Source: Bacteroidota bacterium (GTDB taxonomy: Bacteria; Bacteroidota; Ignavibacteria; Kapaibacteriales; UBA2268). Taken from it: a stretch of DNA of 62,739 nt. The DNA is taken from NCBI GenBank assembly GCA_009777815.1, contig WRLB01000001.1, positions 1-62,739 of the forward strand, written 5' to 3'. The notes under the pieces were generated by a model that was given only the letters and a program-made list of their open reading frames with translations, made no database searches and had not been told where the DNA came from. A program made the position numbers and the translations under genes. The stretch's first letter is position 1. Each line of letters opens with the position of its first letter. Of the stretch, positions 18,129-61,406 are shown one piece after another.

Positions 18129-18410
18129 CCAATTATATAATTGCTTTTTGCATTATAATATGCAATTTTCGATTTATATAATTGCTTTTTGCATTATAAT
18201 ATGCAATTTTCGATTTATATAATTGCTTTTTGCATTATAATACGCAAATTCCAATTATATAATTGCTTTTCCGATTATATAATTGCTTTTCCGATTATAT
18301 AATTGCTTTTCCAATTATATAATTGCTTTTCCAATTATATAATTGCTTTTCCGATTATATAATTGCTTTTCCGATTTATAAATTGCTTTTTCAAATAACA
18401 AATTGCTTAA
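18129..18410 (+). repeat. Tandem repeat array A: 3 x 41-bp units, then 8 x 20-bp units, ending at the aspS stop codon
   Basis: AATTGCTT starts at 18139, 18180, 18221, 18261, 18281, 18301, 18321, 18341, 18361, 18381 and 18401. The 20-bp unit is AATTGCTTTTCC(G/A)ATTATAT. Confidence 0.95.
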
Positions 18411-18446
18411 TCATTTTACTAAACTTATTCCTAATTCTTTTAATTG
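18400..18446 (-). repeat. Direct repeat R copy 2 (47 bp), the genuine 3' end of aspS
   Basis: Identical to 17393..17439. Confidence 0.9.
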
Positions 18447-20222
18447 TCCTGCGTCTATAACAGACGGACAGCCGTCCATCAATGATGTTGCACTTGTTGT
18501 TTTCGGAAATGCTATTACATCGCGTATATTATCTGTGCCGCAAAGCAACATCACTATTCTATCTATTCCAAGTGCTATTCCGCCGTGTGGTGGCGCCCCG
18601 TATTGCAATGCTTTTAGCAAAAAGCCAAACTTTTCTTCTTTTTCATTATCACTTAATCCAAGCAGTTCAAACACTTTACTTTGCACTTCAGAGTTATGTA
18701 TTCTGATGCTCCCGCCTCCTATTTCATTGCCATTTAAAACTAAATCATAAGCATCTGCATTTATGGTTGAAGGGTCTGTATTTAGCATATTTATCGCATT
18801 ATTTGCATCTAAATTAGGAGAAGTAAAAGGATGATGCTTCGACACATAACGCTCTGCATCCGAATCGTATTCAAATAAAGGAAAATCAATAACATAATGA
18901 AAACTATAAGTGTTTTTTAACTTATCAATAATGCCCAACTGCTTTGCTAATTCCAATCGCAAAGCACCAAGTATAGTTAATGCACGATATTTTTCATCAG
19001 ACGAAATTAAAATCAAATCATTATTTTCTGCATTTGCTATATCTTTTATTGCTTCTATGTCATTATCATTTAAGAACTTAGCAATAGGGGAAGATATCTC
19101 GCCTGATTCATTTATCTTAATATACGCCAAACCTTTTGCTCCATATTTCTTAGCAAAATCAGTTAAATTATCTAATTGCTTTCGCGAATAATTACCTGCT
19201 CCTTTGACATTTATAAGTGCAATATATCCGTCTTTTTGACTTAACACATCCTGAAAAACTTTGAAATCCACATCCTTCATTATATTAGTAATATCTTTAA
19301 TTTTCATATCAAAACGAATATCGGGCTTATCACTTCCATACTGCAACATAGCATCTTCATAAGTCATTCGCGGGAATTTATCGGGCAAGTTAATATTGAG
19401 AATTTCCTTCCAAAGTTCCTTAAAAAGTCCTTCAATAATAGTTAAAATATCATCTCTTTCAATAAAAGACATCTCTAAGTCCAGTTGCGTAAATTCAGGT
19501 TGTCTATCAGAGCGTAAATCCTCATCTCTAAAGCATTTTACAATCTGAATGTATTTATCAAAGCCCGCCATCATTAGTATTTGTTTATAAATCTGTGGAG
19601 ATTGCGGCAAGGCATAAAACTTCCCATTATGTATTCTACTCGGCACAACATAATCTCTTGCACCTTCGGGCGTGGATTTTACTAAAATAGGCGTTTCAAC
19701 TTCTAAAAAGTTATGTTTTTCAAAATATCTATGGATTATTTGATATACCTTATTCCTAATTATAAAATTTCGCTGCAAAGAATGCCTTCGCAAATCCAAA
19801 TAACGATAGCGGAGTTTAAGTTCTTCATTAGTATCTAAATTATCAACGATTTCAAATGGTGGCAGTTCTGCTTTATTTATAATTCCGAAATCATTTAGTA
19901 GTATTTCCATATATCCTGTAGGTATTTTAGGATTAGGGTTGGAACGCAATCTTAAATTACCTTCAGCCCATATAACATATTCTGATTTTAGTGCTTTTGC
20001 TTTTTCGGCGAGTTTAGGATAATTTTCGGTTTCAATAACGAGTTGCATTATTCCGTATCTATCTCTTAAATCAATAAATACAAGTCCGCCCATATCACGG
20101 ACATTATGAATCCATCCATTTAATATGAATTTATTTTTATAATTTTCTTGTTTAAATTCGTTTGGATTAATTACATTTTGAGCGAAGTCATTGCATATAG
20201 CATTTCTTTTTTTCCAGTTCAT
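18411..20222 (-). CDS. aspS: Aspartate--tRNA ligase
   Basis: 603 aa. OB-fold N-terminus (GWIHNVRDMGGLVFIDLRDRYG). Class II motifs (FRDEDLRSDRQPEFTQLDLE, GGGSIRIH, GAPPHGGIALGIDR). Confidence 0.95.
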   Translation of the reverse strand: MNWKKRNAICNDFAQNVINPNEFKQENYKNKFILNGWIHNVRDMGGLVFIDLRDRYGIMQLVIETENYPKLAEKAKALKSEYVIWAEGNLRLRSNPNPKIPTGYMEILLNDFGIINKAELPPFEIVDNLDTNEELKLRYRYLDLRRHSLQRNFIIRNKVYQIIHRYFEKHNFLEVETPILVKSTPEGARDYVVPSRIHNGKFYALPQSPQIYKQILMMAGFDKYIQIVKCFRDEDLRSDRQPEFTQLDLEMSFIERDDILTIIEGLFKELWKEILNINLPDKFPRMTYEDAMLQYGSDKPDIRFDMKIKDITNIMKDVDFKVFQDVLSQKDGYIALINVKGAGNYSRKQLDNLTDFAKKYGAKGLAYIKINESGEISSPIAKFLNDNDIEAIKDIANAENNDLILISSDEKYRALTILGALRLELAKQLGIIDKLKNTYSFHYVIDFPLFEYDSDAERYVSKHHPFTSPNLDANNAINMLNTDPSTINADAYDLVLNGNEIGGGSIRIHNSEVQSKVFELLGLSDNEKEEKFGFLLKALQYGAPPHGGIALGIDRIVMLLCGTDNIRDVIAFPKTTSATSLMDGCPSVIDAGQLKELGISLVK

Positions 20223-20248
20223 ATTATAACATTATTAATTCTATATTG

Positions 20249-20256
20249 CAAAAATA
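20249..20256 (-). promoter_or_regulatory. -7 box for aspS
   Basis: caaaaata equals TATTTTTG on the minus strand, 27 nt upstream of the ATG at 20222. Confidence 0.4.
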
Positions 20257-20269
20257 AGAAAAAAAACCT

Positions 20270-20277
20270 TATTTTTG
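20270..20277 (+). promoter_or_regulatory. -7 box for the prolyl oligopeptidase gene
   Basis: TATTTTTG, 21 nt before the ATG at 20298. Confidence 0.4.
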
Positions 20278-20297
20278 CATTTTATATATATTGCAAT

Positions 20298-22394
20298 ATG
20301 AATATCAAATTAAATTATTTATCTATTTTATTAGTGGCATCAACTATTTCACTAAACTCAATGGAAGCGTTTAATCCACCGCCGACTGAAATCATTCCCG
20401 TTGTGGATACGCTTTTTAATTACAATATAATTGATAACTATCGTTGGCTCGAAGATAAAAAAGACCCGAAAGTCCTCGAATGGTCGCAAGCACAACATAA
20501 TTATACTATCGATTATATTAACAAAAACTTCAAACAATATCCTGGAATGAAGGATGAAATCCGTGCTATTTATGATAGAGATAACATTTCTGCTCCATTT
20601 TTCAAGCACGACAGAGAGTTCTTTTATAAAAAGATGCGTGGCGAACAGCAATCTAAAATTTATACAAGAATCAAAAATAAAGAAGTTTTAATCTTTGACC
20701 CTCTTAAAATTGACCCGACAGGAAAAACCGCAATCAATTCATTTGTTCTCACAAAGAAAGGAGATAAAGCCGCTGTTGGAGTGCAATTCCAAGGGAATGA
20801 AGTCAATACTTTTTATGTTATTGATACAAAAACGGGAAAGCAAATAACAGAACCGCTTTCCGGTTTATCGGGCTGGGCTTGGACTCAAGACGAAAAAGGT
20901 GCTTATCTTTGGGAACGCACCCGCGAAATGTTAGAAAAGCAAATCCCTACGATTACTTATTATCACAAATTAGGTGATAATAGAAAAAATGATATAAAAC
21001 TTCTGCAACCCGATAATCCAAAAGATTTTGCAAGTATTTCTGATGACGATGAAGCACCATATACTATTGTTACAGATTCGGATTTTTGGTCTAATACATT
21101 ATATATTATGCCTCTTTATAATACTACAACAAATAACGATTTAACAAAGAAAAAGCAAATTTTTTCAAGCAAAGAGTTTAAAGCAAACCCTGATATTAGA
21201 AAAGATAAAATATATTTTATGACCAATCATAATGCACCAAATTGGAAAATTATGGTTGCTGATATTACTAATCCTGAATTTGAAAATTGGAAAGATTTTT
21301 ATCCCGAAAAAGAAACTAAACTTGAAGGATATGTTTTTACGAGTGATTATTTTTTAGCATATTATCGCAAAGATGTTTTAGCACATATTGATATTTATGA
21401 TTTGAATGGAAACTTCGTTAAAAAACTTGAAATGCCTGAAACCGCTGAACCATCAAGTATGAGTTATCATAAATTAACTAATACCGTTTATATCTCTTTT
21501 ACTTCTGTTGATGTTCCAACAAAAATATATTCGCTAAATGGCAAGACATTAGAGTGGAAATTCTTTTGGCAAGATACGACTATAAAAGTTGATGCAAAAG
21601 ATATTATTGTAGAACAAAAATTTTATAATTCTTTGGATGGCACTCGCATTCCTTTATTTATAATTCGCAAAAAAGATACTCCGCTTGATGGCAATAATCC
21701 TGTATTAATGTATGGTTATGGTGGTTTTAATAATGTTGTAAAACCAAGTTTTTTGAATCATTATTTATCTTTTATTAATCGCGGTGGCATTTATGTTTTG
21801 GGATGTTTTCGTGGCGGAGGTGAGTATGGTGAAGTGTGGCATCAAGGCGGAATGCTAAAGAATAAACAAAATACTATTTCTGATTGCATTGCTGCTTGCG
21901 AGTTTTTGATAAATGAAAAATATACTAATCCTAAACGAATTGCTTTGCGTGGTGGTTCTAATGGTGGAATACTAATTGGAGGGATGGCTGTTCAGCGACC
22001 TGATTTATTTAATGCGGCTGTGTGTGCTGTTCCGTTGTTAGATATGGTGCGTTATCATTTATTTTTAATGGGTCCTTATTGGATACCTGAATATGGTTCT
22101 GCTGATGTTAAAGAGGATTTAGATTACATTTTAACTTATTCGCCTTATCATAATATTCGGTCAGGGCTTGGAGTTCCATCATTATTGGTTAAAGCAGGTG
22201 AAAATGATGCAAGAGTGGATCCATTACACGCTAAAAAGTTTGCAGCAGCGTTGCAAAATCATATAGGACAAATAGAACCAATTTTCTTACATATTGACTT
22301 CGAAAGCGGACACGGAAGCGGACAAGCAATAGACCAACTAATAGATAACTTATACTTCGAACTCCGCTATATTATGGATAGAATAGGAATGTAA
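20298..22394 (+). CDS. Prolyl oligopeptidase family serine peptidase (S9A), secreted
   Basis: Start at MNIKLNYLSILLVASTISLNS (signal peptide). The longer ORF from 20148 overlaps aspS and the promoter. Catalytic region RGGSNGGILIG, ENDARV, ESGHGSG. Confidence 0.9.
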   Translation: MNIKLNYLSILLVASTISLNSMEAFNPPPTEIIPVVDTLFNYNIIDNYRWLEDKKDPKVLEWSQAQHNYTIDYINKNFKQYPGMKDEIRAIYDRDNISAPFFKHDREFFYKKMRGEQQSKIYTRIKNKEVLIFDPLKIDPTGKTAINSFVLTKKGDKAAVGVQFQGNEVNTFYVIDTKTGKQITEPLSGLSGWAWTQDEKGAYLWERTREMLEKQIPTITYYHKLGDNRKNDIKLLQPDNPKDFASISDDDEAPYTIVTDSDFWSNTLYIMPLYNTTTNNDLTKKKQIFSSKEFKANPDIRKDKIYFMTNHNAPNWKIMVADITNPEFENWKDFYPEKETKLEGYVFTSDYFLAYYRKDVLAHIDIYDLNGNFVKKLEMPETAEPSSMSYHKLTNTVYISFTSVDVPTKIYSLNGKTLEWKFFWQDTTIKVDAKDIIVEQKFYNSLDGTRIPLFIIRKKDTPLDGNNPVLMYGYGGFNNVVKPSFLNHYLSFINRGGIYVLGCFRGGGEYGEVWHQGGMLKNKQNTISDCIAACEFLINEKYTNPKRIALRGGSNGGILIGGMAVQRPDLFNAAVCAVPLLDMVRYHLFLMGPYWIPEYGSADVKEDLDYILTYSPYHNIRSGLGVPSLLVKAGENDARVDPLHAKKFAAALQNHIGQIEPIFLHIDFESGHGSGQAIDQLIDNLYFELRYIMDRIGM

Positions 22395-22405
22395 AAACCA
22401 AAAAT

Positions 22406-22461
22406 GTCATTCCGAATTTATTTCAGTGTCTATTTTAACACGGGGATTCATCCCCGTGTTA
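22406..22461. repeat. F1 left arm + F2 hairpin (left half of the composite element flanking the TA pair)
   Basis: GTCATTCCGAATTTATTTCAGTGTC 22406-22430. TTAACACGGGGATTCATCCCCGTGTTA 22435-22461. Confidence 0.8.
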
Positions 22462-22528
22462 TGTAATAATAAATAAAAAAAAGAAAAAGTTATATTTGTA
22501 TTTTGTAAATTAATTATTTAATAAAAAT

Positions 22529-22771
22529 ATGGCAGTAGCAATTGTAGAAGTTCCGTTTCAATTGGATTTATTACAACAAATAGATAATTTCGTCGAAGAA
22601 AAAACTTGTTCAAGAGCAGATATTATTCTTGAAGCAACTAAAATGTATATTGCACATAAACAAAATTGGCAAGATATATTTTTACTTGGTGACCATCTGG
22701 CTTTAGAGAATAATCTCGCTAAAGACGATGTTATAAACGAAATAAAGGCATACCGGCAAGAAAGAAAATGA
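22529..22771 (+). CDS. Ribbon-helix-helix (CopG-like) antitoxin
   Basis: 80 aa. Beta-strand IVEVPF followed by two helices (LLQQIDNF.., SRADIILEATKMY). 4-nt ATGA overlap with the PIN gene. Confidence 0.65.
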   Translation: MAVAIVEVPFQLDLLQQIDNFVEEKTCSRADIILEATKMYIAHKQNWQDIFLLGDHLALENNLAKDDVINEIKAYRQERK

Positions 22772-23193
22772 AACTCGTATTAGATACAAATGTTTTTATA
22801 TCCTCATTTTTTTGGAGCGGCAATCCTCGGAAAATAATGACAAGAATTATAGAAAGAAAAGATGTCCTGTTTGCTTCTAACGAAATACTACAAGAAGTAT
22901 TTTTTGTTATGTCACGCCCTAAATTTAATGTGTCTCATCATCAAGTTGTTCATTTTGTTAATTCTATTGCAGAAATTTCCAGTCGTGTTAATTTATTGGG
23001 AACAGTAAAAGGAGTTTGTCGTGATAGTGATGACGATAAAATATTGGAATGTGCTATATTAGGCAAAGTAGATTTTATAATTACAGGCGATAAAGATTTA
23101 TTAATTTTGAAAAAATTTAAAGAAATACCCATATTATCTCCTTTGGAATATATTGAAAAGATTAAAAAAATTAATAGATTAAACATCCATTAA
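22768..23193 (+). CDS. PIN-domain toxin (VapC-like, PIN_3 type)
   Basis: 141 aa. MKLVLDTNVFISSF (Asp5), ..NEILQEV.., CRDSDDDKILECA, IITGDKDLL acidic residues. Confidence 0.8.
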   Translation: MKLVLDTNVFISSFFWSGNPRKIMTRIIERKDVLFASNEILQEVFFVMSRPKFNVSHHQVVHFVNSIAEISSRVNLLGTVKGVCRDSDDDKILECAILGKVDFIITGDKDLLILKKFKEIPILSPLEYIEKIKKINRLNIH

Positions 23194-23250
23194 CACGGGG
23201 GCTTGCCCCCGTGCTAATTTTATGGGAATTCCGAAATAAATTCGGAATGA
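23190..23250. repeat. F2 hairpin + F1 right arm (right half of the composite element flanking the TA pair)
   Basis: TTAACACGGGGGCTTGCCCCCGTGCTAA 23190-23217 (contains the PIN stop codon). GGAATTCCGAAATAAATTCGGAATGA 23225-23250. Confidence 0.8.
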
Positions 23251-23382
23251 TATTTTGTATAATTCTCCTCATCTGTGCATTCACCACCGCTGCCGATTGC
23301 CTGATTAACGGCGGACCAATGACAGGAGCGTCAATTACAGACGATATAATAATTGCTGATGGATTAGATATACCTAATGTCC

Positions 23383-25854: not shown

Positions 25855-25871
25855 AATTAGTAACGTTTTGA
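25855..25871 (+). other. Conserved motif AATTAGTAACGTTTTGA (copy 2 of 3), abutting array B
   Basis: Same motif as 18053-18070 with one T fewer. Confidence 0.6.
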
Positions 25872-26060
25872 CGCGAAACGCCTTAATTTGACGCGAAACG
25901 CCTTAATTTGACGCGAAACGCGTTAATTTGACGCGAAACGCCTTAAATTGACGCGAAACGCCTTAATTTGACGCGAAACGCGTTAAATTGACGCGAAACG
26001 CGTTAAATTGACGCGAAACGCCTTAAAATGACGCGAAACGCCTTAAAATGACGCGAAACG
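25869..26060 (+). repeat. Tandem repeat array B: 9 full + 1 partial copies of the 20-bp unit TGACGCGAAACGC(C/G)TTAA(T/A)(T/A)
   Basis: Unit starts at 25869, 25889, ... 26049 (exactly 20 bp apart). Units 3, 6 and 7 contain the inverted repeat ACGCG-AAA-CGCGT. Confidence 0.95.
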
Positions 26061-26142
26061 CACGAAAAAAACTCCTAATTTGATTTTAAGTCACGTAATG
26101 TAAAAGAATAAGAGGATTGCGGATAATTACATATTTTTTCCT

Positions 26143-38335: not shown

Positions 38336-38352
38336 AATTAGTAACGTTTTTA
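38336..38352 (+). other. Conserved motif AATTAGTAACGTTTTTA (copy 3 of 3)
   Basis: Same 16-nt core as 18053 and 25855. Here it is not followed by a tandem array. Confidence 0.6.
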
Positions 38353-38516
38353 GAATATTAAAGTTATTTTTTGTAGTAATATGCTGTTATACCAACCTTG
38401 TTTGGGTATCTACTAATTTTTATTATAAGTGTTTATTAAAGAATTAATGGTCTGTGTCAAGCACACTATTAAAAAATACAGAAGTTTTATTTTTAGTGGT
38501 ATATCAATTCAATTAT

Positions 38517-39195: not shown

Positions 39196-39329
39196 ACTCT
39201 GTTATGCGGACTTGTTTCAGCATCTACTCGCATAAAATAAGTTGATGATGAAACAAGTTCAGCATAACTGCTTTTTAATAAATGGATGTCGAAACAGGTT
39301 CTATATGACATTTTTAGATGTCACCTAAA
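39196..39329. repeat. Cluster of F1 hairpins plus F3 tail
   Basis: TGCGGACTTGTTTCAGCA, GATGAAACAAGTTCAGCA, GTCGAAACAGGTTC, ATGACATTTTTAGATGTCACCTAA. Confidence 0.75.
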
Positions 39330-43562: not shown

Positions 43563-45956
43563 ATGTCCGAAAATACAAATCCTACAAGTATTGAAAATAA
43601 TGCTGAAAACAATATTCAAAATACTAACGTAGAACTTAATGTAACAGGAAATGAAATGGATGCCGTAAGTAAGAAAAAATCTATTTCACAAATGTTTCCA
43701 AATGTTGCAGAATTTATGGAACAAAACTTCAAACAATTTGAAATGGATGACAAAGAGTTTGAAGAATTAGCATTCAAAGATGTTCCAGAAATTAAAGAAG
43801 ATGAGTTAATTAAAGGTAAAATCGTCTCTATAACGAAAGACGAAGTGCTTGTTGATATTAATTTCAAATCATATGGAATTATACCGAAAGGCGAGTTAGT
43901 TAATTCAGAAGCATACTTCGAAGGCGAAGAAATTGATGTCTATATCGAAAAAGTAGAAGACACCGATGGAAAAATAATTTTATCACGCAGGCGTGCTGAT
44001 TTTATGCGTATATGGAAAGATATACTTGCACTTCATAAAAATCAAGAAGTGATTAAAGTTAAAATTATTCGCAAGATTAAAGGCGGAATGATGGTAGAAT
44101 TATTTGGTATAGAAGCATTTTTACCAGGTTCGCAAATAGATATTCGTCCTATCAAAGATTTTGATTCTTGGGTCGGACAGAATATTGAAGTAAAAGTAGT
44201 AAAGGTAAATAATCCTTATGAAAATGTTATCGTTTCGCATAAGATATTATTAGAAGAACTGCTTGCCGACCAGCGAATGGAAATAATGAACAGATTAGAA
44301 AAAGGTTTAGTGCTTGAAGGAGTAGTTAAAGCAATTTCTGAATTCGGTGTATTTGTTGATTTAGGTGGCATAGATGGTCTTGTCCATATTACTGACTTAA
44401 GTTGGGGTAGAGTGCAGAACCCTCGCGAAGTAGTAGAAGAAGATACAGCAGTGCGAGTAGTTGTGCTTGATTTTGATAAGGTAAAACAACGTATTGCTTT
44501 AGGTATGAAGCAACTTACACCGCATCCTTGGGATGAAATAGGTGATAAGTATGTTGAAGGAACTAAAGTAGGCGGCAAGGTAGTATCACTTACCGAATAT
44601 GGTGCTTTCATAGAAATAGAAAAAGGCATAGAAGGATTAATCCACCTTAGAGAAATGTCTTGGACACAGCACGTTAAATATGCTCACCAAGTATTGCAAA
44701 TAGGACAATATGTAGAAGCACTAGTTTTAAGTATTGATAAGTCAGAGAAAAAACTATCGCTTGGTATGAAACAATTAACACCTGACCCTTGGGAAGATAT
44801 AATTAAAAAATTCCCTATTGGTTCTAAACAACAAGGTGTTATTCGGCACTTATCTACATTTGGTGCTTTTGTTGAACTTGAACAAGGAGTAGAAGGACTA
44901 ATTTATGTAGCGGATTTGAGTTGGACTAAAAGATTTATCCATCCCGCAGAAATATTTAGAAAAGGTGATGATATAGATGTTGTAATCCTAAATGTAGATT
45001 CAGAACAAAGAAGAATATCATTAGGACATAGACAACTTAAAGAAAATCCTTGGGAGAAATTAGAAGAAGTTTATCCAGTGGGTATGGAAACTGAAGCAAG
45101 AATAGAACGTATTATAGAAAAAGGAGTTATTATTGGCTTGCCTGATGACGTAGATGGATTTGTTCCAAGTTCGCAACTTTCATTTGCACCTATAAAACAC
45201 GTTAGAAATTACTTTGAGCCAGGAGATATTTTGCCTTTAAAAGTTGTAGAATTTGATAAAGAAACTAAAAAAATTGTTCTATCTGTGGTTGAGTGTTTGA
45301 GGGGTAAAGACCAAGCAATTATAGATAAATATAATAAGCAACATCCTGTTCCTCATGCTGATAGATACTCTTCGGGTACTGAACTATCTGAACATATTAA
45401 GACGTATCAACCAGGCGACAAAGAAGTAGATGAAATAATAAAACAAGAATTTTCGTATCCTGAACTGCCTGAAGATATTGTTTCTGCTACTATACACGAT
45501 ATAACAGTAGAAAAAAATGCCGAAAAACTTGGTATGACTATAGAGGAATATAAAGAATATTTAGAAATAGAAAAAGCAAAAGAATCTGCAAAAATAGTTT
45601 CTGTTGAGGAGGTTGCTCCTGTCGTAGAAGAAGTTACTCCTGCTGTTGAGGAGGTTGCTCCTGCTGTTGAGGAGGTTGCTCCTGCTGTTGAAGAAGTTGC
45701 TCCCGCTGTAGAAGAAGTTGCTCCTGCCGTGGAAGAGGTTGCTCCTGCCGTAGAGGAAGTTGCTCCTGCCGTGGAAGAAGTTGCTCCTGATGTTGAGGAA
45801 GTTGCTCCTGATGTTGAAGAGGTTGCTGAAACAGAAGAAGTTTCTGATGAAGATGATGAATATAATGAAGATATAGTTTTTGATGAAGACGATGAATATG
45901 ATGATGATGATGAAGTTCCCGATAAAGAAAAGGAAGAACCAGCATCATTGTTTTAA
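43563..45956 (+). CDS. rpsA: 30S ribosomal protein S1 with a long repetitive acidic C-terminal extension
   Basis: 797 aa. Six S1 domains (e.g. GKIVSITKDEVLVDI, GVVKAISEFGVFVDLGGIDGLVHITD, GKVVSLTEYGAFIEIEKGIEGLIH). Tail of VEEVAPA heptads plus a D/E-rich end. Confidence 0.93.
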   Translation: MSENTNPTSIENNAENNIQNTNVELNVTGNEMDAVSKKKSISQMFPNVAEFMEQNFKQFEMDDKEFEELAFKDVPEIKEDELIKGKIVSITKDEVLVDINFKSYGIIPKGELVNSEAYFEGEEIDVYIEKVEDTDGKIILSRRRADFMRIWKDILALHKNQEVIKVKIIRKIKGGMMVELFGIEAFLPGSQIDIRPIKDFDSWVGQNIEVKVVKVNNPYENVIVSHKILLEELLADQRMEIMNRLEKGLVLEGVVKAISEFGVFVDLGGIDGLVHITDLSWGRVQNPREVVEEDTAVRVVVLDFDKVKQRIALGMKQLTPHPWDEIGDKYVEGTKVGGKVVSLTEYGAFIEIEKGIEGLIHLREMSWTQHVKYAHQVLQIGQYVEALVLSIDKSEKKLSLGMKQLTPDPWEDIIKKFPIGSKQQGVIRHLSTFGAFVELEQGVEGLIYVADLSWTKRFIHPAEIFRKGDDIDVVILNVDSEQRRISLGHRQLKENPWEKLEEVYPVGMETEARIERIIEKGVIIGLPDDVDGFVPSSQLSFAPIKHVRNYFEPGDILPLKVVEFDKETKKIVLSVVECLRGKDQAIIDKYNKQHPVPHADRYSSGTELSEHIKTYQPGDKEVDEIIKQEFSYPELPEDIVSATIHDITVEKNAEKLGMTIEEYKEYLEIEKAKESAKIVSVEEVAPVVEEVTPAVEEVAPAVEEVAPAVEEVAPAVEEVAPAVEEVAPAVEEVAPAVEEVAPDVEEVAPDVEEVAETEEVSDEDDEYNEDIVFDEDDEYDDDDEVPDKEKEEPASLF
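45603..45833 (+). repeat. In-frame 21-bp tandem repeat (about 11 units) encoding VEEVAPA heptads in rpsA
   Basis: GTTGAGGAGGTTGCTCCTGCT and synonymous variants (GAA/GAG, GTA/GTT/GTG, CCT/CCC). Confidence 0.9.
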
Positions 45957-46617: not shown

Positions 46618-46620
46618 AGT

Positions 46621-46687
46621 TATGCCGAACTCGTTTTAGCATCTCCTAATAGAAATAGAGGATACATAAATAAGTTCGGAATGACAG
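46621..46687. repeat. F1-type MITE-like element (two arms, about 67 bp)
   Basis: GCCGAACTCGTTTTAGCATCTCC ... TAAGTTCGGAATGACAG. Confidence 0.7.
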
Positions 46688-50329: not shown

Positions 50330-50362
50330 GCTAATATAATGTCAAATATTATGCCGAATATT

Positions 50363-50420
50363 GCTGAACTTGTTTCGGAATCTCCACAAAACAAAACACG
50401 GGGGCAAGCCCCCGTGTTAA
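50363..50420. repeat. F1 arm + F2 hairpin
   Basis: GCTGAACTTGTTTCGGAATCTCC 50363-50385. AACACGGGGGCAAGCCCCCGTGTTAA 50395-50420. Confidence 0.8.
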
Positions 50421-50639: not shown

Positions 50640-51124
50640 GATACACTGCAAGATAATCGGGTGCCGGAAGTAATAGAGATGGACGAGATTTACACTCGTG
50701 TAAAAAAAGGGGCTTGCGAGTTCAGGTATGGGTTGCTTATTCTCGGCGGCGAAGTAAAGTTGTTGCATATACGATAGGTGCCAGCAGCAATTGCGCCATA
50801 GAACTTTACAATCTGACTAAGCGTGCAGTAGGCAATATTAGTTGTATTTACACTGATGGCAATTCAAGTTATCGGGAGCGATTTACCGATATTGGCATAT
50901 CTGATTTGCATAAAGTAGCACCGGGCAAGTCACAGACGCATCTGATAGAGAGTGTCAATAGCAGTATCCGAGACAATTTAGCTAGATTTAACAGACGTAG
51001 CAAGCGTTATAGTAAGACATTAGAAATGTTAGATAATACGCTATTATTATTTTTTCATTACAAAAAATACAAACGTCACATAAAGCGAACACTGCCAACG
51101 TTACTGAAATTGTTAAATTTATAA
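50640..51124 (+). mobile_element. IS1-family transposase remnant (N-terminally truncated, frame-disrupted)
   Basis: Frame 0 reads ..VPEVIEMDEIYTRVKKG. After the A7 run at 50702-50708 the homology continues in the -1 frame: VWVAYSRRRSKVVAYTIG..IYTDGNSSY..KSQTHLIESVNSSIRDNLARFNRRSKRYSKTLEML (InsB-like DDE region). Locally higher GC. Confidence 0.7.
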
Positions 51125-53359: not shown

Positions 53360-53416
53360 AACACGGGGATGAATCCCCGTGTTAATTGTATGTAATTCCG
53401 AACTTGTTTCGGCATC
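53360..53416. repeat. F2 hairpin + F1 arm
   Basis: AACACGGGGATGAATCCCCGTGTTAA 53360-53385. GTAATTCCGAACTTGTTTCGGCATC 53392-53416. Confidence 0.8.
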
Positions 53417-54992: not shown

Positions 54993-55436
54993 CTACTCCT
55001 TCATCAACATCTTACTGTTTGTTTTTTCAAATTCATTTAAGAACAGAGAGATTTCATAATTATCTAGTTCATCACTTAAATATTTATCTGTGGTTTCTTT
55101 AAATGAATCAGAATCTTCATAAAAATTAATAAGTTCGCCAAAACGCCGTTCCACAATAATTTTACCTAAACGTCCGTCTTTTTTAACCTTTATCCATTTT
55201 TCACGTATCTCTACAATTTCATCATATATTGGCTTTATTACAGTAAACCTATCAAGAAACAAACCGTATTTAATAGAGTTTTCGTATTCCATAAAATCAT
55301 TTATTATAATTTTAATCCCTTTATGTTGTTCCGTAACTATAAATCCATTTTTGTATAAATATTCTGAATTTTCTTCTTCTATGGTTAAATTTATTAATAA
55401 ATTTGATAAAAAGTTTATTATTACTTGGATGATCAT
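54993..55436 (-). CDS. Hypothetical protein (weak WG-repeat-like pattern)
   Basis: 147 aa. Starts 5 nt after the ettA stop, using the GGAG inside the ettA end as Shine-Dalgarno. Ends with the same LMKE-stop as ettA. Confidence 0.5.
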   Translation of the reverse strand: MIIQVIINFLSNLLINLTIEEENSEYLYKNGFIVTEQHKGIKIIINDFMEYENSIKYGLFLDRFTVIKPIYDEIVEIREKWIKVKKDGRLGKIIVERRFGELINFYEDSDSFKETTDKYLSDELDNYEISLFLNEFEKTNSKMLMKE

Positions 55437-55441
55437 TCTTA

Positions 55442-57133
55442 CTACTCCTTCATCAACTTTTTATATCTTACTCTTGTTGGTTCTATATTGCCTAATCTTT
55501 GTTTGCGATTTTCAATATATTCTGAATAACCGCCTTCAAAATAATAAACCTGCGAATCTCCTTCAAAAGCAAGAATATGTGTGGCAACTCTGTCCAAAAA
55601 CCACCTATCGTGTGAAATAATTACAGCACATCCCGCAAATCCTTCTAAACCTTCCTCCAAAGCACGCAAAGTATTTACATCAATATCATTAGTAGGTTCG
55701 TCCAACAAAAGAACATTTGCTTCTTTCTTCAGTGTTAAAGCAAGATGAAGACGATTCCTTTCGCCACCCGATAAGATACCACACTTCTTTTGTTGGTCGG
55801 CACCTGCAAAATTAAAACGAGCAACATAAGCCCGTGAATTAAACGAACGACCTTGAATAGTAATCTCTTCGTGTCCTTCTGAAACAACTTCCCATATAGT
55901 TTTATCGGGGTCAATTTCGGTATGCTGCTGATCTACATATCCAACAACAACGGTATCTCCTATCTTGAACTCGCCCGAATTAGGTGATTCAATTCCCATA
56001 ATCATTCGAAACAGCGTTGTTTTTCCCGCACCATTCGGACCAATAATACCTACAATTCCTGCTGGTGGTAGTTTGAAATTAAGTTTTTCAAAAAGCAATT
56101 TATCATCAAAAGATTTAGAAACATCAACAGAATCAATAACATTATTTCCTAACCGCGGACCATTAGGAATAAATATCTCTAATTTTTCTTCTTTTTCTTT
56201 AACATCTTCATTTAGCATATTTTCATAAGCAGAAAGACGTGCTTTTGCCTTGGCGTGCCTTGCTTTTGGAGACATTCTAACCCATTCCAGTTCTCGTTCT
56301 AATGTTTTTTGTCGTTTAGATTCTTGCTTACCTTCTTGCTCTAATCTTTTTGCTTTTTGCTCCAACCAAGAAGAATAATTGCCTTGATATGGAATACCTT
56401 CGCCTCTATCCAACTCTAAAATCCAACCCGCAACATTATCTAAAAAATATCTATCGTGTGTGATAGCAATAACAGTACCTTTATATTGCTGAAGATGTTG
56501 CTCTAACCAATCAACTGATTCGGCATCTAAATGGTTCGTTGGCTCATCCAATAAAAGAATATCGGGTTCAGTTAAAAGCAATCTACACAATGCAACTCTT
56601 CTTCTTTCGCCACCCGACAGGTTTTTAATCGGTGCATCAGCAGACGGACATCTTAACGCATCCATTGCTCGTTCAAGTTTATTATCAAGATTCCAAGCAT
56701 CTTTTGCTTCTAACAAATCGGTAAGTTTGCCTTGTCTTTCTATTAGTTTATTCATTTCATCGTCAGACATCGGCTCGGCAAATTTTGCACTTATATCGTC
56801 ATATTCTTTTAGTAAATCCACAATTTCTTGCATACCTTGTTGTATAGTTTCTTTAACTGTAAGGTTATCATCAAGTTCGGGTTCTTGTGCTAAATGACCG
56901 ATAGAATAGCCCGGCGAAAAAGTAACATCACCTGTATAAGATTTTTCTATTCCTGCAATAATTTTAAGTAGTGTAGATTTGCCTGAACCATTAAGCCCAA
57001 TGATACCAATTTTAGCACCATAATAGAAGGACAGATAGATATTTTTAAGCACTTGTTTATGTGGAGGAAATATTTTATTTATTCCGATAAGGGAAAAAAT
57101 TATTTTTTTATCATCTAAATTAGTTGTAGCCAT
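55442..57133 (-). CDS. ettA: Energy-dependent translational throttle protein EttA (ABC-F)
   Basis: 563 aa. Two ABC cassettes (GLNGSGKST, LSGGERRRVAL, LLLDEPTNHLD; GPNGAGKTT, LSGGERNRLHL, LLLDEPTNDID) with a charged linker. Confidence 0.93.
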   Translation of the reverse strand: MATTNLDDKKIIFSLIGINKIFPPHKQVLKNIYLSFYYGAKIGIIGLNGSGKSTLLKIIAGIEKSYTGDVTFSPGYSIGHLAQEPELDDNLTVKETIQQGMQEIVDLLKEYDDISAKFAEPMSDDEMNKLIERQGKLTDLLEAKDAWNLDNKLERAMDALRCPSADAPIKNLSGGERRRVALCRLLLTEPDILLLDEPTNHLDAESVDWLEQHLQQYKGTVIAITHDRYFLDNVAGWILELDRGEGIPYQGNYSSWLEQKAKRLEQEGKQESKRQKTLERELEWVRMSPKARHAKAKARLSAYENMLNEDVKEKEEKLEIFIPNGPRLGNNVIDSVDVSKSFDDKLLFEKLNFKLPPAGIVGIIGPNGAGKTTLFRMIMGIESPNSGEFKIGDTVVVGYVDQQHTEIDPDKTIWEVVSEGHEEITIQGRSFNSRAYVARFNFAGADQQKKCGILSGGERNRLHLALTLKKEANVLLLDEPTNDIDVNTLRALEEGLEGFAGCAVIISHDRWFLDRVATHILAFEGDSQVYYFEGGYSEYIENRKQRLGNIEPTRVRYKKLMKE

Positions 57134-57237
57134 TTTATTACTTATTTTATAAATATTATGTGCAAAAATAAGGTTTTATTCTAAATTCAAAATAAAAACG
57201 TATTTTTGTAAAGATTATTAACAAATGGCTATTTAAA

Positions 57238-57447
57238 ATGGTACGACCAGAATATATACCACAAAATATAACAGATGAAAATTTAATTTGGTATAATAAC
57301 TATCTTACTAAAGTGGCAAAACATCTTTTGAAACAAGATGGTAAAGCGCTAACAGAAGAAAATATAGAAAATTATAGAAGCCGAATAAATTTAATAAGAA
57401 AGAAAAATATAAACTCAAATGTAAATAAAAAAAACAATACATTTTAA
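57238..57447 (+). CDS. Small hypothetical protein
   Basis: 69 aa, Lys/Asn-rich. TATTTTTG at 57201-57208. Confidence 0.35.
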   Translation: MVRPEYIPQNITDENLIWYNNYLTKVAKHLLKQDGKALTEENIENYRSRINLIRKKNINSNVNKKNNTF

Positions 57448-57453
57448 TAAAAA

Positions 57454-57684
57454 ATGCAGGAAGTTATAGATAAAATTATTAAAATTATAGGTAAAATAAC
57501 TATTGCTGATATTATTTCAATTATAGTTTTTATTACTATTCTAAAGGATGGTCGTTTTAGTAAAAAAGAAAGATATATTAGAAAAATAGAAAGATGTATA
57601 AAATCACAAGAAATTAATATAGCACATTTAATGTATGAAAAAAATATTATAGCAAGAGATTTTATACAATTTCATACAAAATAA
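57454..57684 (+). CDS. Small hypothetical membrane-anchored protein
   Basis: 76 aa. One TM (ITIADIISIIVFITIL), then a basic tail. Lies 6 nt after the preceding small ORF. Confidence 0.35.
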   Translation: MQEVIDKIIKIIGKITIADIISIIVFITILKDGRFSKKERYIRKIERCIKSQEINIAHLMYEKNIIARDFIQFHTK

Positions 57685-57833
57685 TAATTTATTACATTAA
57701 TAAAAAATCTTAAAATAAACAAGGTATTAGATAACAATAAATATAATTATACACTTTTTGTTTCTAATTTCCTTTTTTTTTGAAAAAAAATACGTTTTTT
57801 TCTTATATAACTTGCCAACTTGACTATATAAGA

Positions 57834-57862
57834 AACACTACCCGAAGGCAGTGTTTTAGTAT
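57834..57862. terminator. Possible bidirectional hairpin terminator between 57454..57684 and 57892..58569
   Basis: CACTACCC-GAA-GGCAGTG hairpin with one internal mismatch and T-rich flanks on both strands. Confidence 0.4.
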
Positions 57863-57891
57863 CATGAATAAATTATGTCTTTAGTAATAAA

Positions 57892-58569
57892 CTAAATTTC
57901 AATTGTTTCGCCGAATTCCATTACTCTTGAATTAAAATTATTTGCTTTAACTTTAGTAACGAACTCATTCGGGTCGGCTAAAATAACAGGAAAAGTATTA
58001 TAGTGCATAGGAATTGCTAATTTAGGTTTAACAAATTGCACTGACTTAACGGCATCTTCAATTCCCATCGTAAAATTATCACCAATAGGAACAAGCATTA
58101 CGTCAGGTTGGCTTATTTCGCCGATAAGTTGCATATCTGAAAACAATCCTGTATCGCCGGTGTGATATATTTTTTTACCACCTATATTAATTATAGCACC
58201 AGCAGGAGGACCCATATATACTCCTTCTTCGTTCACCGATGAGTGATGTGCGATAGTTAATTTTACACTTCCGAAAGGAAACTGAAACTCGCCACCGATA
58301 TGAAGGGGATGATATTTTAATCCTTTTGTGCCGAGATATATTGCTAATTCATTAACAGCAATAACAGTAGCATCATTAGATTTTGCTAATTCTACTGTGT
58401 CTCCGAGATGGTCGCCGTGTGCGTGGGTTAATACTATGAAATTAGGATTAATGTCTGCTGCTTTAATAGTTGCAGTCGGATTACCTGTAATAAAAGGGTC
58501 TATTGCTATTATGTTATTCCCATCCGATACAACAAATGCAGAATGCCCAATATAAGTTAATTTTACCAT
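57892..58569 (-). CDS. UPF0173-type metallo-beta-lactamase-fold hydrolase
   Basis: 225 aa. MVKLTYIGHSAFVV.., IDPF, LTHAHGDHLGD. Confidence 0.85.
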   Translation of the reverse strand: MVKLTYIGHSAFVVSDGNNIIAIDPFITGNPTATIKAADINPNFIVLTHAHGDHLGDTVELAKSNDATVIAVNELAIYLGTKGLKYHPLHIGGEFQFPFGSVKLTIAHHSSVNEEGVYMGPPAGAIINIGGKKIYHTGDTGLFSDMQLIGEISQPDVMLVPIGDNFTMGIEDAVKSVQFVKPKLAIPMHYNTFPVILADPNEFVTKVKANNFNSRVMEFGETIEI

Positions 58570-58737
58570 TATATATTCCTTAAAAATAAAATATAATTAT
58601 ACAAAAATACTAAAAATATTTAAATTATTGGTAACCTCTAAAAATACAACTTCAAATATTCTTCCATCCCGCACTGTATTTAAACAGTTAGAACATTTAA
58701 CAAAAAAATAGTAAATTGCCATAAAAATTCGAAATAT

Positions 58738-59415
58738 ATGCGAAAAATCATAATAGCAATAGATGGTCCAGCAGGGGCAGGAAAAACTTCAACCGCAAAG
58801 TTGTTAGCAACTAAATTAAAATATATCTACATAGATACAGGAGCAATGTATAGAGCAGTCACTCTTGCTTATCTTAATTCTAAAACAGAACTTAATAACG
58901 AAAATCTCGCTAAAACTATTAGTAATATCAGCATAGAATTAAAACCATCCGATAACGGACAGATAACACTGCTTAATGGCACAGATGTGAGCGAAGAGAT
59001 ACGTTCCGTTTTAGTAAATCAGTATGTTAGTCCCGTCAGTGCTAATGAACACGTTAGAAAAAAACTTGTAGATATTCAGCGAAAACTCGGAGAAAGAAAA
59101 TGTTGCGTTATGGACGGCAGAGATATAGGAACAATAGTATTCCCCAACGCCGAATTAAAAATTTTTCTTACAGCATCTCTCGAAGAACGAACAAAACGAA
59201 GATGGCTTGAATACAATAAACAGGCAGGGGTAAATAATCTATCTTTTGATGAAGTATCAGAGCAAATATCAAGCAGAGATAAATATGATTCTTCACGTGC
59301 GGTTTCACCATTATATATGGCAGATGACGCAATAAAAATAGACAATTCTAATATAACATTAGAACAGCAAGTAGAAATAATTTATAACCTTGCCATAGAT
59401 ATTATTGGTAATTAA
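58738..59415 (+). CDS. cmk: Cytidylate kinase
   Basis: IAIDGPAGAGKTSTAKLLA..YIDTGAMYRA, GRDIGT. Confidence 0.93.
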   Translation: MRKIIIAIDGPAGAGKTSTAKLLATKLKYIYIDTGAMYRAVTLAYLNSKTELNNENLAKTISNISIELKPSDNGQITLLNGTDVSEEIRSVLVNQYVSPVSANEHVRKKLVDIQRKLGERKCCVMDGRDIGTIVFPNAELKIFLTASLEERTKRRWLEYNKQAGVNNLSFDEVSEQISSRDKYDSSRAVSPLYMADDAIKIDNSNITLEQQVEIIYNLAIDIIGN

Positions 59416-59546
59416 GATACCTCTTTTAAAATATTTAAGAGAACTACTAAAAAGTTATGTCGTGCTTGACATTTTTAGTAGTATCCACTTATTTTCATCT
59501 TTTTTCGTATTTTTGCAATCAGTAATAAAGTAATTGCAATAAAGTA

Positions 59547-60875
59547 ATGTTTGAAAATTTACAAGAAAAATTAGAACTCGCACTAAAAAAAATAAGCGGC
59601 AAAGCAACCATAACAGAAGATAATATAGCAGAAGCATTAAAAGAAATACGAAAAGCATTTTTAGATGCCGATGTTAATTTTAAGGTAGCCAACGACTTCG
59701 TTCAGCAAGTAAAAGTAAAAGCACTCGGCACAAAAGTAAAAGGTATGCTACGTCCCGAGCAAGTTATCGTGAAAATAGTCCACGATGAACTTGTAGAAAC
59801 AATGGGAAATAAAAATAGCGAACTTATGTTAGCACCGCAACCACCAACTATTATTCTTGTGGCAGGATTGCAAGGTTCAGGTAAGACAACGTTTTGTGCT
59901 AAAATGGCTAAAAATCTTCGCAAAAAAGGAAGGCAACCTCTACTTGTTGCTTGTGATATACACCGCCCTGCCGCTATATTACAATTGAAACAACTCGGCG
60001 AACAAATAAATATTCCTGTATTTTCAGAAGACAATTCTGCTCCTCAAATTGCTCAAAATGCAATACAATATGCCAAAAAATTTGCTCGCGATGTAGTAAT
60101 TATTGATACTGCAGGTAGATTAACTATTGACGAAGAAATGATGCAAGAAGTTAAAGACGTATCTTTAATTAGCAAGCCGACAGAGACGCTTTTTGTATGT
60201 GATGCAATGATAGGACAAGATGCTGTTAATACTGCGAAAGCATTTAATGATTTGCTATCTTTAACAGGAGTTGTGCTAACTAAAATGGATGGTGATACAA
60301 GAGGTGGTGCTGCTTTGTCCGTATTAAAAGTAGTAGGGGCACCAATTAAATTTGTTGGTGTCGGAGAAAAAATAGATGATTTAGAACCATTTTATCCTGA
60401 TAGAATAGCATCGCGCATTCTTGGAATGGGCGATATTCTTACTTTGGTAGAAAGAGCAGAACGAGAAATAGATGATAAAAAAGCAGAAGAACTTGAAGAA
60501 AAAATAAGAAAGAACCAATTTACTTTTGATGATTTTTTAGACCAACTTAAAATGCTGAAAAAGATGGGAAATATTAAAGACCTTGTAGGTATGTTGCCCG
60601 GTATGGATAAAAAATTAATAGATACTAATGTTGATAATACGGGCTTAATTCGTATGGAAGCAATTATTAATTCTATGACGAAACAAGAAAGAAGCAACCC
60701 TAAAATTATAAATGGTAGCCGAAGGATGCGAATTGCCAGAGGAAGCGGTAATAGTGTGCAACAAGTTAATATGTTGCTGAAAAAATTTGAAGATATGCAA
60801 AAAATGATGAAAAGTTTGTCGCTGGGTAAAAAATCAAAAATGTCACAGCAATTCAAAAAATGGGGAATAATGTAA
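59547..60875 (+). CDS. ffh: Signal recognition particle protein
   Basis: 442 aa. GLQGSGKTT, DTAGR, TKMDGDTRGGAALS. Met-rich M domain (MLPGMDK.., MRIARGSG). Confidence 0.95.
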   Translation: MFENLQEKLELALKKISGKATITEDNIAEALKEIRKAFLDADVNFKVANDFVQQVKVKALGTKVKGMLRPEQVIVKIVHDELVETMGNKNSELMLAPQPPTIILVAGLQGSGKTTFCAKMAKNLRKKGRQPLLVACDIHRPAAILQLKQLGEQINIPVFSEDNSAPQIAQNAIQYAKKFARDVVIIDTAGRLTIDEEMMQEVKDVSLISKPTETLFVCDAMIGQDAVNTAKAFNDLLSLTGVVLTKMDGDTRGGAALSVLKVVGAPIKFVGVGEKIDDLEPFYPDRIASRILGMGDILTLVERAEREIDDKKAEELEEKIRKNQFTFDDFLDQLKMLKKMGNIKDLVGMLPGMDKKLIDTNVDNTGLIRMEAIINSMTKQERSNPKIINGSRRMRIARGSGNSVQQVNMLLKKFEDMQKMMKSLSLGKKSKMSQQFKKWGIM

Positions 60876-60879
60876 GAAA

Positions 60880-61131
60880 ATGGAAAACAAAAACAATGAA
60901 AGTTATAATGAAAGAAAACAAATTTATCAATCTGTGGGACCATTTTTAAATTTAGGTTTGCAGATGTCAATAACTATTGGTGTGTTTGTTTTGGGAGGTT
61001 GGTGGCTTGACAAACAATTTGATACATCGCCGATATGGACTTTAATTTTGAGTGGTATTGGCATATTTGGTGCATTTTATAGTTTCATCAGAAAAGTAAT
61101 CAATTTAGAAAAAAAGAAGAAAGATGAGTGA
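60880..61131 (+). CDS. AtpZ/AtpI-like small membrane protein
   Basis: 83 aa, two TM. LNLGLQMSITIGVFVLGGWWLDKQFDTSPIWTLILSGIGIFGAFYSF matches the ATPase_gene1 pattern from memory. Confidence 0.5.
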   Translation: MENKNNESYNERKQIYQSVGPFLNLGLQMSITIGVFVLGGWWLDKQFDTSPIWTLILSGIGIFGAFYSFIRKVINLEKKKKDE

Positions 61132-61151
61132 TAATGTTCTTTTTGTTACTT

Positions 61152-61221
61152 GTCATTCCGAACTTATTTCAGCATCTCCTTGTTAATATTAGTAGATTCC
61201 GAAACAAGTTCGGAATGACAG
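61152..61221. repeat. Complete F1 MITE-like element (about 70 bp, two inverted arms, each itself a hairpin)
   Basis: GTCATTCCGAACTTATTTCAGCATCTCC - 15 nt - GATTCCGAAACAAGTTCGGAATGACAG. Confidence 0.85.
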
Positions 61222-61229
61222 ATTTTTGT

Positions 61230-61406
61230 TTAGAAATTTCTAATTGTTGAACAGGTTTTTCTAATTATTTTTAGAAATTTCTAATTTATTTTAGAAATTT
61301 CTAATTGTTGAACAGGTTTTTCTAATTATTTTTAGAAATTTCTAATTTATTTTAGAAATTTCTAATTGTTGAACAGGTTTTTCTAATTTATTTTAGAAAT
61401 TTCTAA
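61230..61406. repeat. Tandem repeat array C: 3 x 61-bp units carrying six perfect 14-bp palindromes TTAGAAATTTCTAA plus three half-sites
   Basis: Palindromes start at 61230, 61271, 61291, 61332, 61352 and 61393. Half-sites TTTTTCTAA at 61256, 61317 and 61378. Effective spacing is 20-21 bp. Confidence 0.95.

Follow-up and report, generated by a model that had tools for sequence, protein, structure and literature searches.

The window analysed here, a stretch of 62,739 nucleotides from a member of the Bacteroidota (assembly GCA_009777815.1, contig WRLB01000001.1, positions 1 to 62,739), contains three tandem arrays, designated A, B and C, which are composed of 20- and 21-bp units. Throughout the assembly, 99 strong arrays of such units were found, which belong to about 23 unit families. 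The arrays are not free-standing but are the variable-number cores of interspersed mosaic elements. With moderate confidence, we interpret them as genome-private, non-autonomous mosaic repeats of the REP/BIME, BOX or MITE (miniature inverted-repeat transposable element) kind, i.e. as selfish or neutral DNA with in-register cores that keep their period. In the following, C3 to C117 denote contigs of this assembly, and positions given without a contig are window positions. The arrays of the window and the sequences directly preceding two of them are:

18053..18128, + strand: family-1 head AATTAGTAACGTTTT (18053-18067) and conserved leader of about 75 bp, upstream of array A
18129..18410, + strand: array A, based on the near-palindrome CCRATTATATAATTGC: three 41-bp doublets (20+21), then eight 20-bp units
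25855..25869, + strand: head AATTAGTAACGTTTT, immediately abutting array B
25868..26061, + strand: array B, ten 20-bp units TTGACGCGAAACGC(C/G)TTAA(T/A)(T/A), family 6
61229..61414, + strand: array C, three 61-bp higher-order units, each of 21+20+20-bp modules with TTTCTAA / TTAGAAA inverted repeats

The unit spacing that a preliminary description of this DNA had given for the three arrays was reproduced by base-level word spacing and by Tandem Repeats Finder (TRF), which agree with each other. In array A, the word AATTGC is spaced by 41, 41 and 40 bp and then seven times by 20 bp (18139-18401); TRF reports a period of 20 with 13.2 copies (18129-18394). The end units of this array are degenerate and merge into the 3' end of aspS; in other family-1 copies, the unit is the perfect palindrome CCAATTATATAATTGG. 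In array B, GACGCG recurs nine times at a 20-bp spacing (25870-26050), and TRF yields a period of 20 with 9.7 copies and 95% matches (25868-26061). The G variants of its unit form the palindrome ACGCG-AAA-CGCGT. In array C, TTTCTAA is spaced by 21, 20 and 20 bp in a recurring pattern (61237-61400), which TRF resolves as a period of 61 with 3.0 copies and 97% matches (61229-61414) and also as a period of 20 with 7.8 copies. Relatives of its unit were found at C36 22366 and C75 1-76. The genomic contexts differ, as had also been described: array A has a DUF4160/DUF2442 cassette on one side and the 3' end of aspS on the other, array B is located in the spacer of the divergent genes purA and rng, and array C between convergent gene ends.

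The units of the three arrays fall into three separate families, and the statement that they are unrelated in sequence extends to the other families of the genome. For 19 curated family consensus units, the mean best-rotation identity is 0.517 compared to 0.506 in shuffles, and six pairs are at least 65% identical, compared to 4.2 expected. Hidden homology between the unit families was therefore rejected.

The period spectrum of the genome

The assembly is a short-read metagenome-assembled genome (MAG) of 1.94 Mb in 121 contigs with a G+C content of 31% and a completeness of approximately 73%, and was scanned as a whole. The preliminary description had proposed a check for genome-wide enrichment of the period, and units of 20 and 21 bp turned out to be strongly over-represented. 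Among 564 non-overlapping arrays detected by TRF, 88 have a period of 20 and 132 a period of 21, compared to 14 at period 19 and 18 at period 22; harmonics are present at periods 40-42, 60-63 and 80-82. An alignment-free count of nearest 10-mer recurrences gave the same picture, with 2,742 recurrences at 20 bp and 3,036 at 21 bp versus 46 at 19 bp and 174 at 22 bp. This peak exceeds neighbouring distances by a factor of 15 to 65 and has harmonics at 40-42, 60-63 and 80-84 bp. In the same count, periods of one and three helical turns were not enriched (68 recurrences at 10 bp, 52 at 11 bp, 52 at 31 bp and 18 at 32 bp). A third-order Markov genome of equal size yielded only 40 TRF rows, two of them at period 20 and two at period 21, with a top score of 81.

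Arrays with a period of 19-23, at least three copies and a TRF score of at least 90 were considered strong; these are the 99 arrays mentioned above. Of these, 32 reach contig ends of this incomplete MAG, and the numbers and lengths of arrays are therefore lower bounds.

The corresponding check in relatives was carried out on 851 kb sampled from five genomes, one of which belongs to the same genus, and the 20/21-bp peak is missing there. Only 12 recurrences of 10-mers were counted at 20 bp and 99 at 21 bp, which per Mb is approximately 100-fold and 13-fold less, respectively, than in the genome studied here. Only three strong arrays were found in these 851 kb, compared to 99 here. Furthermore, 300 other genomes of the class gave no occurrence of the tandem pattern GTAGG-N4-CCTAC, and the JGI metagenome set contained no close relatives of the purA locus (best PurA identity at most 56%).

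Heads, shells and units of the elements

Three kinds of frame surround the arrays: a head with or without a leader, terminal inverted repeats (TIRs) of about 26 bp, and REP-like hairpins. The 14-mer ATTAGTAACGTTTT of the head is present in 55 copies in this genome and in zero to one copy in each of 30 relatives. It points inward at a distance of at most 40 bp from 16 of the 99 arrays, compared to 0.3 expected. These arrays represent four unrelated families and include array B. In addition, family-1 arrays, array A among them, are preceded by the head, which is part of the leader there, at a distance of about 65-90 bp. Some elements (C37, C19) end with an inverted head, and in C49 a 42-bp unit consists of a head plus an inverted head. 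When the sequences are printed in register, the head takes the place of unit zero, the two copies of a double head are spaced by 21 bp, and the common register is maintained where the unit type switches. The head-proximal boundary of the arrays is sharp: the first unit is 70-100% identical to the consensus, and 13 of 15 arrays reach at least 85%. The distal ends often contain one to three decayed units. Relative to the downstream gene, 21 heads are co-oriented and 18 anti-oriented; due to this missing orientation bias, a role of the head as a promoter was rejected. No match to a double head was found in viral contigs.

Family 1, to which array A belongs, comprises at least 20 arrays. The entire element is about 350-450 bp long and occurs in about 30 copies. 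Its leader is conserved, its core is a variable series of 20-bp units and 41-bp doublets, and its conserved tail is a GC-rich hairpin. The leader pattern ...AGTAACGTTTT.GCAATTTATTTA..GAA..CC.ATTTATCTGTTGTTTAAGCGATTT recurs at about 30 loci of the genome. Members of family 6 are located on C3, C17, C37, C42, C56 and C96, and every one of them is headed by the motif that precedes array B. The TIR shell TTATGTAAAAATTAC..AATCGGAT was found in nine complete copies, which enclose 2-10 units of the type AAGCAGT-N7-ACTGCTT; its terminal inverted repeats read ATGTAAAAATTAC.T.AATCGGAT. The stem of the enclosed units is constant, and the loop differs between copies and is uniform within each copy. One copy of the shell encloses a quite different unit.

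Array C lacks a head, yet is flanked by hairpin modules that are found around other elements, and the hairpin module type AACACGAGGGCAAGCCCCCGTGTTAA recurs after arrays at other loci. REP-like hairpin modules of the type GTCATKCYGAACTYRTTTCRGMATC occur 13 times in the window, compared to zero expected, and give about 439 strand-hits genome-wide. One element of the window has a core of a single unit. The corresponding features are:

38336..38372, + strand: mosaic element with n=1, in which a solo head AATTAGTAACGTTTT is followed by one family-2-like unit (TAGAATATTAAAGTTATTTTT) and then by a hairpin module
61152..61219, no strand assigned: inverted pair of REP-like hairpin modules (GTCATTCCGAACTTRTTTCRGMATC), left of array C
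61446..61465, no strand assigned: GC-rich hairpin module CACGGGGATTAATCCCCGTG, closing the mosaic region past array C

Further REP-like hairpins of the window, often arranged as inverted pairs (the pair at 61152-61219 belongs to the same set):

8180-8325
10410-10474
22406-22430
23227-23251
39244-39268
46619-46685
50358-50382
53392-53416

An inverted repeat of 4-8 bp is contained in the units of about 13 of the 23 families, and many units carry a single phased A/T tract. The lengths of stem, loop and linker vary widely across units; their total stays at 20 or 21 bp. A count of stem variants, made by means of imperfect regular expressions, gave mostly G-T/A-C variants and not compensated pairs, and compensatory covariation is therefore not claimed. 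In the commonest variants of the family-1 unit, the head strand has G-T where the opposite strand has A-C, an asymmetry that is compatible with pairing in RNA or in a single strand.

Two further observations concern the surroundings of individual elements. Direct copies of the aspS 3' terminus bracket array A together with the DUF4160/DUF2442 pair (17393-18446), and a sequence resembling this terminus, ttcaaataacaaattgcttaatc..., also closes a family-1 array in contigs L210 and C117.

Placement, coding arrays and strain differences

Most of the strong arrays (85 of 99) lie outside called genes. Intergenic arrays are found in 31 tandem, 13 divergent and 9 convergent spacers, which make up 55, 26 and 19% of the intergenic bp, respectively; the placement of the arrays is thus proportional to the intergenic space. 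The overall strand bias of the arrays (11 versus 19, p=0.2) is not significant. No multi-copy protein family systematically adjoins arrays, with the sole exception of the WG-repeat surface proteins. Four of the six genes for these (KWG-type) proteins are followed by a head and a family-2 array (C101 3883-4587, C17 29674-31985, C19 12337-12867), and gene and element seem to have been duplicated together.

The remaining 14 arrays are located in long open reading frames (ORFs). In one of these cases, the ORF is spuriously extended at its N-terminus; the period is 21 in each of the remaining 13. Among the 14 arrays, none of the 20-bp class lies in genuine coding sequence, where 20 bp would shift the frame. 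The host genes include those for MutS2, IleRS, RNase R, SppA, an S9-type peptidase, a penicillin-acylase-like protein, a glycosyltransferase, a surface protein of 1,317 residues and, in the window, ribosomal protein S1. In-frame heptads such as PTQRGEI, SEKPLMQ and VEKPTQK are encoded, and the arrays are flanked by translated hairpin modules (EMPKQVRHD, CHAELVSAS, HPVSAIALPPLHRGE). The reading frames, which comprise 700-1,300 codons, are kept through the 21-bp arrays. In the three hosts that were checked, MutS2, RNase R and SppA, the Pfam domains are intact on either side of the insert; the insert of IleRS is about 500 residues long. The ORF of ribosomal protein S1 (43563-45956) codes for 798 residues. 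The array of the window and the insert-bearing genes on other contigs are:

45601..45827, + strand: coding 21-bp array with 10.8 copies, VEEVAPA heptads, in the ribosomal protein S1 gene (rpsA)
C12 27007-30000, insert-bearing gene
C34 11752-14961, insert-bearing gene
C32 1732-3768, insert-bearing gene
C67 2730-5087, insert-bearing gene
C22 2035-5349, insert-bearing gene
C13 17984-21031, insert-bearing gene
C70 2691-5057, insert-bearing gene
C49 195-4145, insert-bearing gene

A near-identical strain is represented in the independent assembly ENA ERZ27257348, and six arrays were compared between the two strains. Array C and the array on C37 are identical; the other four have changed. In array B of the other strain, a 21-bp second-head unit TAGGGAAATTAGTAACGTTTT replaces the first 20-bp unit, which corresponds to a net length change of 1 bp, and the order of unit variants is reshuffled; of the flanks, the upstream one agrees fully between the strains, and the downstream one differs by a few substitutions. 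Up to the contig end, array A of the other strain contains four or more 41-bp doublets, compared to three here. The arrays on C48 and C15 differ by +21 bp and -21 bp, respectively, which is exactly one unit each. These differences are in-register changes of whole units and therefore fit slippage or unequal recombination in register, one of the processes that the preliminary description had considered. Within arrays, the unit spacing is 20 bp in 177 and 21 bp in 254 cases, compared to one case of 19 bp and ten of 22 bp. Mismatches outnumber indels by 707 to 80, despite linkers that consist of A/T runs. Contigs from a JGI sample start or stop adjoining the array A locus and within the C15 array.

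The left neighbours of one TIR shell differ between the two strains (C15 19150-19560 versus L238 1000-1510 of ERZ27257348). The left neighbour in the other strain is a gene for a protein of 214 residues, which in the genome studied here lies beside another shell copy (C32 22238-22882). This difference points to recombination of shell copies with each other or to a join that the assembly made at the repeat.

Origin of the common period and relation to known repeats

Each element consists of conserved flanks and a core of one to about 14 head-to-tail units of 20/21 bp. If the arrays are selfish or neutral mosaic repeats, the cores would grow and shrink by slipped-strand mispairing or unequal exchange in register, and the in-register exchange would both keep the period constant and homogenise each array. 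The elements themselves would be selfish or neutral DNA and not dedicated regulators, in line with their placement in proportion to intergenic space, the lack of an overall orientation preference and their occurrence inside genes. It is less certain what sets the length. Possibly, 20/21 bp is a design constraint of the superfamily; for a protein that might bind head and units, one recognition site together with its linker would then measure about two helical turns. As the period cannot be altered by slippage, such a constraint would persist passively.

Several findings weigh against this interpretation. Passive inheritance of the period requires a common ancestry of the families, and their units are no more alike than shuffles. 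A palindrome is absent from about 10 of the 23 families. Family-1 elements are oriented antisense to co-directional flanking genes in a ratio of 9:1, which hints at some selection or function. The copy numbers within arrays rest on short-read assemblies, and many arrays are located at contig ends. Furthermore, no enzyme that might mobilise the elements was detected. The assembly contains no match to Y1/RAYT (PF01797) or to Cas1 (PF01867), which at a completeness of 73% is not proof of absence, and neither a reverse transcriptase nor a tyrosine recombinase nor an rve transposase was detected in it. As none was found in the incomplete assembly, RAYT, HUH, reverse transcriptase, tyrosine recombinase and rve transposase were rejected as candidates for the mobiliser. 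IS1-family transposases are the only class found among those searched, with seven fragments in the genome. A link to these was rejected as well: between the inverted head and the ends of one element (GGCATTGGTKACTAAATACTTG), an 8-mer is all that is shared, and no match was seen in a second copy. Finally, neither a target-site duplication nor an empty site was shown, and past mobility is thus deduced solely from the dispersal of the elements. The fragment in the window is:

50664-51110: IS1-family transposase fragment; an inverted head-like word AACGTTACT abuts one end at 51097

In a separate comparison, the tyrosine recombinase domain PF00589, which includes XerC/D, had no match in this assembly and a match in 14 of 14 control genomes; this may be due to the incompleteness (73%) or to a real loss.

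The preliminary description had inferred a common generating or selecting mechanism and had offered helical phasing, for protein oligomerisation or DNA bending, as one form of it. The common mechanism is in line with the genome-wide excess of the period, the shared head and the common register. The phasing part is unsupported: a generic selection for helical phase predicts an excess at one and three turns as well, which is absent, and no phased-binding protein was identified. It is rather improbable that the arrays are host-beneficial phased sites, i.e. sites spaced by two turns on the same side of the DNA to which a nucleoid or regulatory protein would bind cooperatively, or intrinsically bent DNA that organises the chromosome or tunes neighbouring promoters. 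In favour of this, a spacing of 20-21 bp corresponds to about two turns of the helix, dimeric proteins bind palindromes of the kind formed by most units, and many units contain the single phased A/T tract. BIME-type REP arrays are reported to bind several proteins (PMC2817692). However, the 20 or more unrelated units would require many binders or a reader of DNA shape, the arrays show no preference for promoter or terminator spacers and also occur in coding regions, and no gene family is systematically adjacent. The arrays are also absent from relatives including the genome of the same genus, and their copy number varies between near-identical strains.

The variation of stem, loop and linker at a constant sum, together with the occurrence of unrelated units in shared shells, keeps alive the idea of a two-turn protein footprint or of a head-anchored ruler. 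An enzymatic ruler, for which a head- or TIR-anchored nickase, integrase or transposase would cut or template-jump at positions 20-21 bp apart and thus duplicate adjacent DNA, is nevertheless an unlikely origin. Arrays would be born repeatedly in the same shells and would grow from the head end, in a manner resembling a spacer-less CRISPR duplication or an oversized target-site duplication. Such a process would account for sequence-unrelated arrays under an identical head or shell, for heads that occur as 21-bp tandem doublets at several loci and are polymorphic between strains, for a head-side boundary that is always sharp in arrays with often degenerate distal units, and for the constant sum of 20/21 bp. 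A shell unit on C19, which resembles a 21-bp duplication in shifted register spanning shell sequence, points in the same direction. On the other hand, a candidate enzyme was not detected, and the changes between strains are also located inside the arrays and not solely at the head. The polarity is mild, and decay of distal units is also expected for plain slippage beside a constrained head. Young two-copy duplications outside the arrays lack a clear peak at 20/21 bp (one independent case of 20 bp, five coding cases of 21 bp, three cases of 18 bp); a general mutational bias for this length is not visible among them, with too few events. More specifically, the head ATTAGTAACGTTTT and the other shells might be the anchor of a repeat-adding machine with a ruler of about 20.5 bp that makes units from adjacent sequence, which we regard as improbable. 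This machine would either be related to the repeat duplication of CRISPR, but without spacers, or perform an oversized duplication by staggered cuts; if true, it would explain the single period over about 23 unrelated families in one genome.

A function at the level of RNA is distinctly improbable. Runs of small hairpins, transcribed from the head or leader or through read-through, could serve as terminators, RNA stabilisers or protein sponges, or as the source of unit RNAs of 20-21 nt. Arrays A, B and C, folded as single-stranded DNA, are far more stable than shuffles (z-scores of -3.6, -4.5 and -6.6, respectively), and many units form a hairpin followed by a T run in head orientation. The 9:1 orientation of family 1 relative to flanking genes, its GC-rich hairpin end and its dominant G-T/A-C variants, which are tolerated only in RNA or in a single strand of the head strand, are also compatible with such a function. 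Arguing against it, no promoter could be assigned, the orientation of the head is unbiased with respect to genes, the stems are short and AT-rich, and about 10 of the 23 families have no hairpin. The window contains no Rfam match, and a known RNA family was therefore rejected.

That the period is an artefact of assembly, arising from cycles in a de Bruijn graph with k=21, is hardly conceivable. In favour of it, a minimal k that is commonly used lies close to the period, the MAG is based on short reads, and 32 of the 99 arrays lie at contig ends. However, array C and the C37 array are present base for base in ERZ27257348, which also contains arrays B, C48 and C15, there with in-register differences of whole units, and contigs of the JGI sample break next to the array A locus and in the C15 array. 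Moreover, the flanks of the families are conserved and non-repetitive, and the 21-bp arrays keep the long reading frames described above.

The preliminary description had known of no described class of elements with this signature in the lineage, and the statement that no class fits is too strong: conserved flanks combined with variable, short and often palindromic units are the architecture of REP/BIME, BOX, NIME and MIRU. REPs are 20-40 bp long, sometimes tandem and sometimes located in ORFs including those of repair genes, and comprise GTAG- and CGTC-tagged superfamilies; their stems have 8-9 bp, and they form mainly head-head (HH) or tail-tail (TT) dimers with spacers of 20-100 bp, head-to-tail dimers being negligible for CGTC REPs (Di Nocera et al. 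2013, PMC3733652). The arrays described here resemble REP/BIME in their short (20-21 bp), often palindromic units, their high copy number, the existence of several families and the mostly extragenic location. Units of family 7 have the form GTAGG...CCTAC and a family-6 variant, GACGCGAAACGCGTC, ends with CGTC; most other families lack a GTAG or CGTC tag. Unlike REP/BIME, the arrays are head-to-tail, spacer-free and fixed at 20/21 bp over about 23 unrelated families. Inverted (HH/TT) dimers are not the rule, and both orientations are present only in few elements (C19 9529-9731, C49). About ten families are non-palindromic, and a RAYT gene was not found in the incomplete assembly. In E. coli, the proteins that bind BIMEs include gyrase and IHF.

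In Streptococcus pneumoniae, BOX elements consist of boxA, n copies of boxB (about 45 bp) and boxC, and the units of mycobacterial MIRUs are 40-100 bp long; in both cases there is one family per genome. Common features are the conserved end modules, the variable tandem internal units, the dispersed loci and the copy numbers that differ between strains. In contrast, the genome studied here has many unrelated 20/21-bp units in shared shells, and a sequence relationship to these elements is not expected, because head and units are private to this genome. The proposed likeness is one in the way of working and not one of membership. The Rickettsia palindromic elements (RPEs) are likewise selfish palindromic repeats that occur in frame in functional genes, here MutS2, IleRS, RNase R and SppA. 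RPEs are single elements of 100-150 bp, whereas the inserts found here, which are an extreme analogue of them, consist of hairpin modules and 21-bp arrays with up to a dozen heptads. Two of them, RPE-4 and RPE-6, have been classed as CGTC REPs (PMC3733652). With MITEs, the elements share terminal inverted repeats (the shell TIRs and the inverted heads that bound arrays on C37 and C19); unlike in MITEs, no target-site duplication was established and no insertion sequence with matching ends was found.

Abutting protein-binding repeats of 17-22 bp, about two turns apart, are known from plasmid iterons, from centromeres of the parC type (repeats of about 20 bp) and from the ends of Mu, Tn7 and Tn402. 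The arrays are similar to iterons and centromeres as tandem direct repeats of 17-22 bp. Those repeats are located at one or a few loci beside their rep, par or transposase genes, whereas the arrays occupy more than 100 loci at housekeeping genes and have neither an adjacent cognate gene nor, in the incomplete assembly, an rve-type transposase. Identity with plasmid iterons or centromeres was therefore rejected. Like CRISPR, they are regular, short and partly palindromic repeats that follow a leader-like sequence. However, the units abut directly without spacers, their spacing equals the unit length, about 100 loci exist and no Cas1 was found in the incomplete assembly, and CRISPR was thus rejected, in agreement with the preliminary description. 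The arrays are a variant of the mosaic-repeat kind outside any named family; unusual are the fixed period over many families and the shared head.

REP, BIME, BOX, MIRU and RPE have been known for decades, and their origin and the rules that govern their length are poorly understood. With about 100 arrays from about 23 unrelated families that share one period in one small genome, it becomes testable what fixes a period independently of sequence; a two-turn protein footprint, an enzymatic ruler and passive inheritance are the candidates. In practical terms, short-read assemblies of this lineage break at the arrays, which would be usable as strain markers of the variable-number tandem repeat (VNTR) type. 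The genome is an extreme natural case of selfish DNA that is read through as peptide inserts in housekeeping proteins.

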